From IMG/VR virus record IMGVR_UViG_2740892014_000012: DNA of 16,521 nucleotides; one strand, written 5' to 3'. Shown here in pieces: positions 3,694 through 7,288 of the stretch. Below the pieces are notes generated by a model that did no database searches, was not told the origin of the DNA, and saw nothing but the letters and a program-made list of their open reading frames with translations. Position numbers and translations under genes: made by a program. Origin of the DNA: a virus (Duplodnaviria; Heunggongvirae; Uroviricota; Caudoviricetes). How positions within the stretch are numbered: position 1 is the stretch's first letter; the number at the start of each line of letters is the position of its first letter.

Positions 3694-4475
3694 GCTGCCA
3701 CCTTCTGCTCAGTGGCTTTCTGTTTCAGGAATCCAAGAGCTTTCACTGCTTCGGCCTGTGTCAGTTCTGACGATGCGCGAATGTCGCGGCGAAATATCTG
3801 GGAACAGAGCGGCAATAAGTCGTCATCCCATGTTTTGTCCAGGGCAATCAGCAGAGTGTTAATCTCCTGCATGGTTTCATCGTTAACCGGAGTGATGTCG
3901 CGTTCCGGCTGACGTTCCGCAGTGTATGCAGTATTTTCGACAATGCGCTCGGCTTCATCCTTGTCATAGATACCAGCAAATCCGAAGGCCAGACGGGCAC
4001 ACTGAATCATGGCTTTATGCCGTAACATCCGTTTGGGATGCGACTGCCACGGCCCCGTGATTTCTCTGCCTTCGCGAGTTTTGAATGGTTCGCGGCGGCA
4101 TTCATCCATCCATTCGGTAACGCAGATCGGATGATTGCGGTCTTTGCGGTAAATCCGGCACGTACATGATTCATTGTCCTGCTCAAAGTCCATGCCATCA
4201 AACTGCTGGTTTTCATTGATGATGCGGGACCAGCCATCAACGCCCACCACCGGAACGATGCCGTTCTGCTTATCAGGGAAGGCGTAAATTTCTTTCGTCC
4301 ACGGATTAAGGCCGTACTGGTTGGCGACGATCAGCAATGCGATGAACTGCGCATCGCTGGCATCACCTTTAAATGCCGTCTGACGAAGAGTGGTGATCAG
4401 TTCCTGTGGGTCGACAGAATCCATGCCGACACGTTCAGCCAGCTTCCCAGCCAGCGTTGCGAGTGCTGTACTCAT
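3690..4475 (-). CDS. bet: Red beta single-strand annealing protein (Bet), 261 aa
   Basis: [59 protein letters not shown]... is near-identical to lambda Beta as recalled. Confidence 0.97.
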
Positions 4476-4852: not shown

Positions 4853-5143
4853 TTAGTGATTCAGGCCGTTGCCGCGTCCGTCGAGAAAAACTTCCACGAG
4901 CAAATCACGGGTATAAGTGCGCTCGATGCCGCGATGCAGATAAAGCCGTCCGCGTAAATTAGCTGATGCAGTCCAGGTACCATCTTTGTGTTTGACCAGC
5001 ATTCCTGGCATGACCGCACCGCGATTAACGGTCTGCGTTCCGTAATGTTGATGAACCATAAAAACTCCTGCCCGTAAGCTGGGCTGCTGAACATATAGAG
5101 ACTTCTGCGCGTATTCAGGCGGTGGATGGCCGCCGGTTGTCAT
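4853..5143 (-). CDS. Hypothetical protein (96 aa), first ORF downstream of pL, in the kil/cIII position
   Basis: Codon composition looks coding in this frame. No similarity recognised to lambda N, cIII or Kil as recalled. An internal start (MVHQHY...) is possible. Function unknown. Confidence 0.45.
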
Positions 5144-5334
5144 AACTAAGCCGCCTCGTTGAAGCGACTAAGGTATGAAATGTTGAGTTAATTTCAGCTG
5201 GTCACACCGACGTTCACGCGTCCGTTTCACCCCTCGCACTCCCCGAAGCCTGCTGAAATTCAAACTGCGGATCTAAGCGGTCATCGCAACGGTGAATCAG
5301 GTAGTTGCCGTATCGTTGTGTTGTTGCGATGAAC

Positions 5335-5415
5335 TTATTTAAAACTATAGTTGTTTTATCGTCAACAACAAAAGTTGTTTTATTGGTTGTTTTAGATATA
5401 ACTGGTTGTATTTAG
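5335..5415 (-). promoter_or_regulatory. pL-like promoter with OL operator cluster
   Basis: Minus strand reads GTTGTTGACGATAAAACAACTATAGTTTTAAAT: TTGACG, 17 nt, TTAAAT. This is nearly identical to the pR module on the other side of cI (GTTGTTGACTAAAAACAACCATAGTTTTAATC). Repeated GGTTGT(T/A) half-sites in both orientations at 5349..5413. Confidence 0.55.
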
Positions 5416-5505
5416 GATGGATTTATTTTGTGACTTGAATCGCATAGCGATAACTGAAGCGAGGTTATGGTGGTTTTTTTAACGGTGTGTGTGATGAGGG
5501 GAGGG

Positions 5506-5533
5506 CAAAAGAAAACCCGGCACGGTGACCGGG
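5506..5533 (-). terminator. Intrinsic terminator downstream of cI
   Basis: On the minus strand: CCCGG..CCGGG stem (5-bp GC stem, 8-nt loop) followed by TTTTCTTTTG, about 120 nt after the cI stop. Confidence 0.55.
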
Positions 5534-5654
5534 ATTCTTACGCCGTTAGGTAAAGATATTATTGCGGTGGCTTAATATTACTACCTAGAGCAAAGATAGG
5601 AATTAGTTCTTTACTGAATGAGCACAATGCCCAGTTGATAATTTTTAATTGGTA

Positions 5655-6344
5655 CTACCCATGCTTCCTATATGTCTGCGGCATGCTCCCAATAACCTTA
5701 CCGAAGATGAACACCCGGTTCATCTCGTCTTTCTCGATCGGGTCCCACGGTGAGTAGCTTTTGTTATCAGAGATGACCAGCAGCTTATCCTTCATCATTT
5801 GCAGGCGCTTTACATGGGCTGTGTCGTCGTACAGAAACGCATAGATACCATCACCGTCGAAAGATTTAACTGTGATATCAACGAACAGCAGATCACCTGG
5901 TTCGATCGTTCCTGACATGCTGTCACCACGCACGTTAATGATGCGGATATTTTCCGCCTTCCTACCATCGAACATGTGACGAGCATCGTCAAACGAGTAC
6001 TCAACCGAGCGTAGAACTTCTACAAACTCACGGTTGATGACTCCCGGCCCAGCACTGACTTCTATATCAAGAACGTCAATCTTGAAGTATTTGGAATGGC
6101 TGACAGTTGATTGTATTGGTTGCACTGTACTGTCTGACATATTTCCAACGCCAGAAGATAACCATTCTGCGCGCACACCCAAAGCGTTCGCGATCTCCAC
6201 GATTTTAGTTGTTTGATTAGCTTTCCCTGTTTCGATTTTCTGAATAGCAGCCTGGCTAACCCCGACCAAATCCCCAAGCGCCTTTTGTGTAAGGCCTCGC
6301 GCTAATCTGGCTTCTTTAAGTCTTTCTGAGAGTGTTGTTTTCAT
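5655..6344 (-). CDS. cI: cI-type prophage repressor with N-terminal HTH and C-terminal LexA-like S24 autopeptidase domain (229 aa from the proposed start)
   Basis: HTH LTQKALGDLVGVSQAAIQKIETGK; S24 motifs VRGDSMSGTIEPGDLLFVD (Ser) and HVKRL (Lys); candidate Ala-Gly cleavage site in VSAGPG. The ORF-track start at 6410 lies inside the operator/promoter; the ATG at 6344..6342 (MKTTLSERLKEA...) sits 6 nt after a TACATT -10-like hexamer, suggesting a leaderless pRM-type transcript. Confidence 0.85.
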   Translation of the reverse strand: MKTTLSERLKEARLARGLTQKALGDLVGVSQAAIQKIETGKANQTTKIVEIANALGVRAEWLSSGVGNMSDSTVQPIQSTVSHSKYFKIDVLDIEVSAGPGVINREFVEVLRSVEYSFDDARHMFDGRKAENIRIINVRGDSMSGTIEPGDLLFVDITVKSFDGDGIYAFLYDDTAHVKRLQMMKDKLLVISDNKSYSPWDPIEKDEMNRVFIFGKVIGSMPQTYRKHG

Positions 6345-6448
6345 AGTCCAAATGTACAACCAAGGTTTTATTCCATCAAACGAAAATGGTTGTTGACTAA
6401 AAACAACCATAGTTTTAATCTTGATTCAAATTAACCACGGAGGTTGTT
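6345..6448. promoter_or_regulatory. Divergent OR / pR / pRM region
   Basis: Perfect 9-bp inverted repeat ATGGTTGTT-N7-AACAACCAT (6386..6410) overlapping a TTGACT -35 (6393..6398), 17-nt spacer, TAATCT -10 (6416..6421). GGAGG SD at 6437..6441, 7 nt before the cro ATG. Additional GGTTGTA half-site at 6355..6361 (minus orientation). Confidence 0.6.
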
Positions 6449-6679
6449 ATGAACCCAGCTATCAAAACAGCGATCAATATCGTTGGTTCACAAAAGAAAC
6501 TGGGCGCTGCTTGCGAAGTTTCACAGCAGGCCGTCTATAAGTGGCTTCACAACAAAGCAAAGGTATCCCCTGAACATGTCGGCAGCATTGTTACGGCTAC
6601 TGGTGGAGTAGTGAAGGCATACCAGATTCGCCCGGATCTTCCGAAGTTGTTTCCACACACCGAAAAGAACGCAGCTTAA
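6449..6679 (+). CDS. cro: Cro-like HTH regulator (YdaS/Cro family), 76 aa
   Basis: First gene of the rightward operon, divergent from cI; HTH-like segment QKKLGAACEVSQQAVYKW; good RBS. Confidence 0.78.
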   Translation: MNPAIKTAINIVGSQKKLGAACEVSQQAVYKWLHNKAKVSPEHVGSIVTATGGVVKAYQIRPDLPKLFPHTEKNAA

Positions 6680-6748: not shown

Positions 6749-7288
6749 ATGCAACCACTTACATACCAACAGACTAGCGGATTTAGCCCGACTGCGGTGA
6801 TAAATCGTTCTCAAACAAAACAGGTGCCAGGCCACGAAAAAATCCGTGATGCCGTCCGCGCCTGGTCGGCTGTAGATAATCAGGATGTCGTTGCCACACT
6901 CATTGTGAATGAGTATCTGGAGCAGGGCGGCGGCACCATCGATTTCCCTGATGATGTCAGCCGTGCACGCCAGAAGCTGTTCCGCTTCCTCGATAACAAA
7001 TTCGATTCTGAAAAATACCGAAATAACGTGCGTGAACTGACCCCGGCAATTCTGGCGGTACTACCGCTGGAATATCGCGGTTACCTGGTTGAGCAGGATA
7101 GCTTCATGGCTAGGTTGGCTGAAATGGAAAAGGAACTCAGTGAGGCAAAACAGGCTGTCATTCTCAACGCACCACGCCACCAGAAACTGAAGGAAATTAG
7201 TGAAGGTATTGTGTCGATGTTTCGTGTGGACCCAGATCTGGCTGGTCCATTGATGGCGATGGTTACTACCATGCTGGGGGCGATATGA
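6749..7288 (+). CDS. YdaT-family protein in the cII position (putative CII-equivalent regulator), 179 aa
   Basis: Position immediately after cro; motifs NEYLEQGGG and LTPAILAVLPLEYRGYL resemble YdaT-family proteins as recalled; AAAGGAG RBS 6 nt upstream. Family assignment is from memory, not from a search. Confidence 0.55.
   Translation: MQPLTYQQTSGFSPTAVINRSQTKQVPGHEKIRDAVRAWSAVDNQDVVATLIVNEYLEQGGGTIDFPDDVSRARQKLFRFLDNKFDSEKYRNNVRELTPAILAVLPLEYRGYLVEQDSFMARLAEMEKELSEAKQAVILNAPRHQKLKEISEGIVSMFRVDPDLAGPLMAMVTTMLGAI

Follow-up and report, generated by a model that had tools for sequence, protein, structure and literature searches.

A lambdoid immunity region with predicted 434-like, 14-bp operators in the virus record IMGVR_UViG_2740892014_000012

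Positions 5,335 to 6,448 of the virus record IMGVR_UViG_2740892014_000012 (Caudoviricetes; 16,521 nt, the whole of which is hereafter called the window) raise the question of which DNA unit is read by the cI repressor encoded there, and whether the repeats around its gene are the operators of a phage switch. An earlier note on this DNA had proposed that cI is flanked by near-duplicate pL and pR modules with GGTTGT half-sites. Our analyses make it likely that this is the immunity region of a lambdoid prophage, i.e. a lambda-type bistable switch, with 434-like operators of 14 bp. As had been proposed, the two repeat clusters correspond to the left and right operator regions (OL with pL, OR with pR) on either side of a divergent cI. 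Specifically, cI (minus strand) and cro (plus strand) point away from each other with 104 bp between them, and both genes carry these names in records of related phages. The parts of the region are listed below in order of position, with site scores (x/10) counting matches to the ten core positions of the consensus ACAAC-N4-GTTGT.

5337-5365, minus strand: pL, with -35 TTGACG (5365-5360), a 17-nt spacer, and -10 TTAAAT (5342-5337); start probably near 5330
5341-5354, minus strand: OL1, ACAACTATAGTTTT, an exact match to ACAACNNNNGTTKT, overlapping the pL spacer and -10
5365-5378, matching on both strands: OL2, ACAACAAAAGTTGT (also given as ACAACTTTTGTTGT), a perfect 10/10 site that shares its last base with the start of the pL -35
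5385-5390, minus strand: lone half-site ACAACC, 12 bp upstream of OL2
5396-5409, minus strand: OL3 candidate, ACAACCAGTTATAT, 7/10, with one perfect and one degenerate half, 31 bp start-to-start from OL2
5655-6344, minus strand: cI, 229 amino acids, a 434-like helix-turn-helix and an S24 domain (Pfam HTH_3 and Peptidase_S24, 1.2e-18)
6351-6379, minus strand: pRM candidate read from the sequence, with -35 TTGATG (6379-6374), a 17-nt spacer, and -10 TACATT (6356-6351)
6356-6369, plus strand: OR3, ACAACCAAGGTTTT, an exact pattern match overlapping the pRM -10
6380-6393, plus strand: OR2, ACGAAAATGGTTGT, 8/10, left half weak and right half perfect, abutting the pRM -35 and overlapping the pR -35
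6393-6421, plus strand: pR, with -35 TTGACT (6393-6398), a 17-nt spacer, and -10 TAATCT (6416-6421); start probably near 6428
6403-6416, plus strand: OR1, ACAACCATAGTTTT, an exact pattern match covering the pR spacer and the first -10 base
6434-6447, plus strand: probable OR4, ACCACGGAGGTTGT, 9/10, covering roughly +7 to +20 of the transcript from pR, its central 4 bp being the cro Shine-Dalgarno sequence GGAG
6449-6679, plus strand: cro, 76 amino acids, YdaS/P22-Cro type (Pfam YdaS_toxin, 4e-17, and P22_Cro), helix S-Q-Q-A-V-Y-K

The hexamer GGTTGT occurs exactly 12 times in the window, a total that is not above chance (8.4 +/- 3.0 in shuffled sequences). Six of these copies lie in the operator regions, two in OL (5385 and 5404, both plus) and four in OR (6356 minus, 6388 plus, 6403 minus, and 6442 plus), which agrees with the at least six that had been counted before. 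The copies at 5385 and 5404 have no good palindromic partner, and that at 6442 is part of the probable fourth site. For the shorter core GTTGT/ACAAC, 217 bp contain 12 of the 51 copies in the window, against an expectation of 0.67 (Poisson P = 9e-12). Its density is 55 per kb in the operator regions vs. 2.4 per kb outside (~23x), i.e. the half-sites are concentrated at the operators.

The near-duplication of the two modules is also borne out. By hand alignment, 27 of the 33 columns of the 33-nt pL and pR modules are equal, in inverted orientation and with one 1-nt indel, located between the -35 hexamer and the ACAAC that follows, while a repeat search returns two inverted repeats, one of 19 nt (5339-5357 vs. 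6400-6418, 95% complementary) and one of 29 nt (5355-5383 vs. 6375-6403, 72% complementary). A 17-nt spacer had been read in both modules; this stands for pL (TTGACG-17-TTAAAT), but the hexamers chosen for pR, TTGACT and TTAATC, are only 16 nt apart because of the indel. In relatives, the pR -10 is TATTCT, TATTAT, TATATT, or TATAAT in the same register, counted from the last T of OR1, and for this reason we place the hexamer of the window one base further on, as TAATCT with a 17-nt spacer.

Relatives were collected by the N-terminal domain of the repressor and include three phages (of Klebsiella, Providencia, and Erwinia) and 41 loci obtained by a single scan of bacterial genomes. With the window counted in, twenty are lambdoid modules whose repressors carry the helix (S/T)QA(A/S/N)IQK; they represent about 12 genera (Escherichia, Klebsiella, Kosakonia, Enterobacter, Providencia, Morganella, Erwinia, Serratia, Xenorhabdus, Brenneria, and others) and provide 40 OL/OR regions. 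Exact close pairs that face inward (ACAAC...GTTGT) have a gap of 4 in 30 of 30 cases in these regions, whereas the outward pairs (GTTGT...ACAAC) have gaps of 9 (15 cases, mostly OR), 10 (17, mostly OL), and 6 and 8 (one each). The core columns of OR3, OL2, and OL1 are mostly invariant (2.0 bits, the remainder at least 1.2 bits), compared with 0.3-1.5 bits for the four central columns. The inward site also stands alone, both at OR3 and as the single site by a chromosomal cI-like gene in eleven Pectobacterium species. Given this fixed gap, the conserved core, and the stand-alone occurrence, we define the operator as the 14-bp sequence ACAAC-N4-GTT(G/T)T, and the unit that the repressor is predicted to bind is most likely this 434-like palindrome, ACAAC-N4-GTTGT, and not a wider dyad. 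Because the outward gap varies, the outward dyad is best described as the right half of OR2 (or OL2) followed by the left half of OR1 (or OL1).

Exact matches to ACAACNNNNGTTKT are found in the window at OL1, OL2, OR3, and OR1 only. When one mismatch is allowed, the pattern has 13 strand-hits, a number reached by none of 200 shuffles (2.56 +/- 1.8). The same layout recurs in the 20 modules, with OR sites at offsets of about 14, 38, and 61 nt from the cI start codon and, in most of them, a fourth at 84-94 nt. Scores of at least 9/10 within loci of 5-8 kb are confined almost solely to OR and to one pair of sites spaced by 24 bp, i.e. OL2/OL1, which lies 0.8-3.2 kb beyond cI in relatives at a distance set by the intervening cargo genes.

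Each site also has its own record of conservation. OR3 scores 10/10 in most relatives, with 8 of its 10 core positions invariant (2.0 bits) and its central 4 nt at 0.3-1.3 bits. OR2 is spaced by 24 bp from OR3 and by 23 bp from OR1, and even its weak half, ACGAA, is kept in 12 of 15 distinct relatives; OR1 is kept as ACAAC-N4-GTTTT in 14 of 17. On the left, OL2 scores 10/10 in 14 of 19 relatives (core 1.5-2.0 bits, central 4 nt 0.5-1.0 bits), and an OL1 homologue, ACAAC-N4-GTTTT, follows at 24 bp in 18 of 19; in the window, OL1 is 95% complementary to the OR1 module. The placement of pL relative to OL2/OL1 (GTTGT, then TGAC) is the same in 19 relatives. Several intergenic differences separate the window from phages PhiR26_1, PhiR47_2, and PhiR5_1, and, in these small numbers, none lies inside OR1-OR4, OL1, or OL2.

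The proteins point in the same direction as the sites. The closest solved structure to cI is the 434 repressor (1per, E 4.5e-9, phmmer vs. PDB), followed by 434 Cro (E 2.7e-7), and residues 5-68 of cI align with residues 2-65 of the 434 repressor without a gap at 24/63 identities (38%). The recognition helix of cI reads S30-Q-A-A-I-Q-K36. Loci whose cI helix is AQPTIWR, SQPSIWK, or AQPSIFK have no ACAAC sites; at those offsets they have different half-sites, such as ATAGC-N4-GTTAT at 15, 39, and 63 in locus L040. The Cro family is not that of the repressor domain, yet the Cro helix shifts together with that of cI and with the half-site: cI helix SQAAIQK is paired with Cro helix SQQAVYK or TQAAVQK, and AQPTIWR with SQPTVWR. 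Such co-variation is the signature expected if two proteins read one set of operators.

The repeats could also be of another kind, namely same-orientation, iteron-like repeats to which the repressor or a different protein would bind head-to-tail, with the palindromes incidental. Direct-repeat operators of this sort are used by P2 C and 186-type repressors. The left region lends itself to this explanation: all 26 extra half-sites found within 90 bp upstream of OL2 in the 20 modules face the same direction (26 ACAAC, 0 GTTGT), they fall at multiples of about 10 bp (12, 22, 31, and 42 bp), and in many genera the OL3 element is a direct repeat, ACAACC-N4-A(A/T/C)AACC. Against it, the palindromes at OR3, at OL2, and in Pectobacterium are genuine and invariant in spacing, and the protein has a 434-type domain, the 434 repressor being one that binds symmetric sites as a dimer. 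The half-site at 5385-5390, which is present in the Enterobacter locus L009, is moreover lost (GGTTTT) in PhiR47_2 and as such dispensable there. We therefore find head-to-tail binding very unlikely.

The earlier note had favored a wide dyad at each promoter. According to this explanation, a repressor dimer would bind one GGTTGTT-N7/8-AACAACC element per promoter, and the other GGTTGT copies would be auxiliary half-sites. One GTTGT-N9/10-ACAAC dyad is indeed present at each promoter (5350-5369 and 6389-6407; 0.06 expected by chance), the OR copy is a perfect 9-bp inverted repeat (ATGGTTGTT-N7-AACAACCAT), and the flanking bases of both arms agree also in loci L006 and L007. Against this, the dyad of the window has a gap of 9 at OR but of 10 at OL, relatives have gaps of 8, 9, or 10, with some of their OR regions at 8 or 10, and the strict pattern GGTTGTN(7-8)AACAACC, whose search had been suggested, has one match at OR (6388-6408) and none at OL. 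A 434-type domain spans 14 bp and not 19-21, and wide dyads give no account of OR3 or of the single Pectobacterium autoregulatory site, both of which are inward palindromes with N4. The dyads are thus real at both promoters, but they appear to be junctions of neighboring operators, and it is very unlikely that they are the binding unit. That the repeats arose by chance in A+T-rich intergenic DNA and have no operator role is refuted as far as computation allows, since only the window-wide GGTTGT count, within the range of shuffles, speaks for it, against the clustering in the operator regions, the excess of pattern matches over 200 of 200 shuffles, and a position, spacing, and orientation kept across about 12 genera in co-variation with two recognition helices.

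With the 14-bp palindromes as operators, a subset of the 434 consensus ACAA-N6-TTGT, a switch can be proposed. The sites, their invariant spacing, their co-variation with both recognition helices, and the homology to the 434 repressor are computed; binding, occupancy order, cooperativity, transcription starts, and pRM activation are what this scheme predicts from them. Repressor dimers (229-amino-acid subunits) would occupy OR1 + OR2, 23 bp apart, and OL1 + OL2, 24 bp apart, and this occupancy would cover both hexamers (-10 and -35) of either promoter, pR and pL. From OR2, whose center is at -42.5 relative to the predicted pRM start, the repressor would activate a leaderless pRM, and occupancy of OR3, which lies over the pRM -10, would shut pRM off. 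The YdaS-type Cro would read the same half-sites as the repressor. The half-palindromic OL3, 31 bp from OL2, and the fourth site would probably add to repression. The sequence of cI has the signature of self-cleavage (Ala98-Gly99, Ser142 in GDSM, and Lys179 in HVKRL), with cleavage itself predicted, and induction of the prophage would follow when RecA stimulates this cleavage at Ala98-Gly99.

A leaderless cI mRNA, as in lambda, is argued for by three features of the sequence: the A of the cI ATG (6344) is the seventh base after the pRM -10, no Shine-Dalgarno sequence precedes cI, and the offset from OR3 to the ATG is fixed at 14-16 nt in 35 of 35 loci that bear the site. The start of cI is annotated in two ways. 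The mechanical open reading frame and the records of PhiR34_1 and PhiR5_1 (756 nt) begin at an ATG inside OR1 (6410), while those of PhiR26_1 and PhiR47_2 (690 nt) and all 40 homologues begin with MKTT (6344), at the fixed offset from OR3. The longer annotation is probably over-extended by 22 codons.

Several points weigh against the proposed switch. First, our literature searches found no binding, footprint, or transcript data for this immunity type. Second, the relatives are homologous, and conservation among them partly reflects common descent. Third, a strict consensus promoter scan called neither pL nor pR, and pRM was also uncalled, so that all three assignments rest on layout and relatives; in the case of pL, the scan fails because its -10 has no A at position 2. 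Fourth, the 26 extra OL half-sites in 20 loci, all in one orientation, are not explained by dimers on palindromes. Finally, OR3 is the best palindrome in most relatives, and the consensus match alone would predict that OR3 is bound more strongly than OR1, the opposite of lambda. In 434, G+C at the operator center lowers repressor affinity. Among the relatives, the mean G+C of the four central bases is 2.16 for OR3 vs. 0.60-0.65 for OR2, OR1, OL2, and OL1, which suggests that the affinity order is tuned via the uncontacted center and that a G+C-rich center may keep OR3 the last site to be filled; this argument is by analogy only, and the equivalent of 434 Arg43 is Thr46 here.

The probable fourth operator, OR4, would cover the ribosome-binding site of cro. 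Of 19 lambdoid relatives, 16 have this site with a score of 8-9/10, and in loci of Providencia, Morganella, Xenorhabdus, and Arsenophonus it is complete, reading ACAAC-GGAG-GTTTT. In the heteroimmune locus L041, half-sites of that locus's own type (ATAAC-ttat-GGTAT) occupy the same offset, 92, with no Shine-Dalgarno sequence within. Counting against OR4, the left half is variable at position 3, and the spacing to OR1 (27-32 bp) is unphased. We also considered two GTTGT cores shortly past the pL start, at 5315 and 5320, as a counterpart of OR4 in OL; they are not palindromic, and one of them is lost in PhiR26_1.

In the left region, a conserved AAAACAACC half-site, the most distant of the extra ones, is found 31 bp from OL2 in 8 loci (window included) and 41-42 bp from it in 9, a difference of one helical turn. 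At 10-12 bp upstream of the OL3 half-site lies a further element, AAAATAAAT (5418-5428, minus strand), which is kept amid diverged surroundings and occurs at the same position in loci L005, L008, L009, L021, L022, L027, and L028 from several genera. It is possibly a host-factor site or a promoter element.

Two further features belong to the immunity region.

5516-5533, minus strand: intrinsic terminator at the end of the cI transcript, CCCGGTCACCGTGCCGGG then TTTTCTTTTG
6749-7288: gene at the cII position, YdaT-family protein (Pfam)

The slot between cI and pL (5410-5655) holds only this terminator in the window and is otherwise empty. Elsewhere it carries cargo: a lipoprotein gene in PhiR26_1, the GevT/GevA toxin-antitoxin in PhiR47_2, a HipA-like toxin-antitoxin in PhiR5_1, and RexA/RexB in Klebsiella phage ST101-KPC2phi6.1. 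The cI gene is itself a mosaic (seen at 5601-6107). Its part for the linker and S24 domain is about 95% identical to that of phages of other immunity (4A7, Lambda_4C10, D2, 1W, and 3W), the DNA-binding domain and OR are found in only six phages, and the recombination junction is inside cI, between the domains.

The pL leader is about 190 nt (within 4853-5330, minus strand) and is followed by a 96-amino-acid open reading frame without a Pfam match, called Kil in related records, and then directly by gam, bet, and exo. There is no N-like antiterminator gene after pL, and neither N nor nut sites were found in the window. Given the lack of an N gene, we considered an HK022-type put antiterminator RNA in the pL leader (5144-5330, minus strand). 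This candidate was dropped: Rfam has 0 matches in the window, the fold does not differ from shuffles (z = 0.18), and the leader has no likeness to the early region of HK022.

The flanks are lambda-like, as had been noted before, with exo/bet/gam to the left of the immunity region and O/P to the right according to annotation in related phage records, and with Phage_rep_O and Phage_lambda_P among the Pfam matches of the window. Directly after gene P, 9252-13517 (plus strand) encodes a 1421-amino-acid inverse autotransporter of the intimin/invasin type (IAT_beta, 5.6e-101, and several Big_1/Invasin_D3 repeats), and a convergent gene at 13554-14597 (minus strand) encodes an alpha/beta-hydrolase (BD-FAE, 5.7e-45). 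PhiR34_1 has ren and DLP12-like genes at the position of the autotransporter, which appears to be adhesin cargo that occupies the nin-region slot.

The Pectobacterium loci (L010-L020, around 3976-4001) have a chromosomal cI-like gene with helix SQAAIQK and a domain that is 72-75% identical. A perfect ACAAC-N4-GTTGT lies at the same offset from its start, a second site of 8-9/10 lies about 105 bp further upstream, and there is no adjacent cro. The homologue in Erwinia phage phiEt88 carries the annotation rdgA, and a literature search on RdgA/RdgB operators yielded no operator data.

Segment 5150-6700 matches Escherichia phage PhiR34_1 at 100% identity and phage Turner at 99.9%. The immunity region (at least 80% of its length) is present in 1055 of 5426 complete Escherichia coli genomes and also in six isolated phages, which makes it one of the commonest lambdoid immunity types in this species. 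Literature searches by phage names, accession numbers, and motif returned nothing relevant, and no description of these operators was found. The region is thus a standard lambdoid immunity region whose 434-like operator specificity is apparently not yet described. Understanding of how such switches work is unchanged, and interest derives mainly from the prevalence in E. coli and from the co-variation series. The comparative set is a clean natural case in which the specificities of cI, Cro, and operator change together while the geometry is fixed. With a defined operator, ACAAC-N4-GTTGT, superinfection immunity groups become predictable from sequence, annotation of the cI start can be corrected, and reporters or an orthogonal, 434-related repressor/operator pair can be designed. 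Only tentatively do we put forward, taken together, a fourth operator downstream of pR with a one-orientation, helically phased array of OL half-sites, and a partial cross-recognition between this system and 434 repressor/Cro. If true, pR and pL would be repressed with more than the classical dimer pairs, and asymmetric cross-immunity would exist between two families thought to be heteroimmune.

Among known systems, the Rac module RacR-YdaS-YdaT and the CP-933P module PaaR2-YdaS-YdaT have YdaS and YdaT in the positions of Cro and CII (PMC9986795). The window resembles them in its YdaS-family Cro followed by a YdaT-family gene, but its repressor is a classical cI with an S24 domain and not RacR or PaaR2, and its YdaT-like protein is only distantly related to YdaT of CP-933P (E 7e-4). 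The operator of CP-933P YdaT is TTGATT-N6-AATCAA (PMC9986795). As an analogue of pRE near cro or the YdaT-like gene this motif was rejected, with matches only at 2-3 mismatches, i.e. at chance level; its sole zero-mismatch copy in the window is a perfect palindrome at 14863-14880, TTGATTATGAATAATCAA.

The specificity differs from that of lambda, as the earlier note suspected. The 17-bp lambda consensus operator, TATCACCGCCAGTGGTA, has 0 matches in the window at up to 3 mismatches, which places the region outside the lambda immunity group, and the DNA-binding domain of the repressor is 434-like. In lambda, OR is tripartite, OR2 abuts the pRM -35 at about -42 and the bound repressor activates pRM from there, OR3 overlaps pRM, and cI is translated from a leaderless mRNA. 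The window shares the divergent cI/cro, a tripartite OR at 23-24 bp spacing, an OR2 that abuts the pRM -35, an OR3 over pRM, a cI mRNA that is apparently leaderless as well, the self-cleaving type of S24 C-terminal domain, and the exo/bet/gam and O/P flanks. By contrast, its operators are unrelated in sequence and 14 bp long vs. 17 bp in lambda, its repressor domain is of the 434/HTH_3 family, a YdaT-family gene occupies the cII position, it has no N gene, and OL and OR are only 1.0 kb apart because there is no insertion between cI and pL. Divergent genes, three OR sites together with OL sites, and an S24 repressor are consistent with a lambdoid cI/Cro switch.

The nearest comparison is with 434, although no nucleotide similarity to 434 or imm434 records was found. 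In 434, the outer 5 + 5 bp of the operator are contacted by the repressor and the central 4 are not (PMC1636474). The 434 record OL657226 has six annotated 14-bp operators of the form ACAA-N6-TTGT, with one exception to the consensus, spaced by 22 and 23 bp in OR and by 31 and 23 bp in OL. The likeness extends to a homologous repressor domain, in which Gln31 of cI is aligned with Gln28 of 434, and to 14-bp operators with conserved outer bases and a variable center; sites of the window fit ACAA-N6-TTGT at 7-8 of its 8 conserved positions, OL3 and OL2 are 31 bp apart in both, and neighboring sites are at 22-23 bp in 434 vs. 23-24 bp in the window. There are also differences. The helices SQAAIQK (window) and TQQSIEQ (434) have only the first Gln in common, the domains are 38% identical, and position 5 is an invariant C in the window type and never C in the six 434 operators; with the lack of nucleotide similarity, this places the region outside the 434 immunity group in the sense of same specificity. 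The Cro of the window is YdaS-type and not a paralogue of the repressor domain. Furthermore, 434 cI has a leader and ribosome-binding site whereas cI of the window is apparently leaderless, 434 has N and nut sites, and the window has the probable fourth site over the cro ribosome-binding site. A homologous N-terminal domain and 14-bp sites of two-fold symmetry point to the 434-type repressor/operator family, and the predicted specificity is related to that of 434 and distinct from it. As the ACAA...TTGT bases are common to both, cross-binding with 434 is possible.

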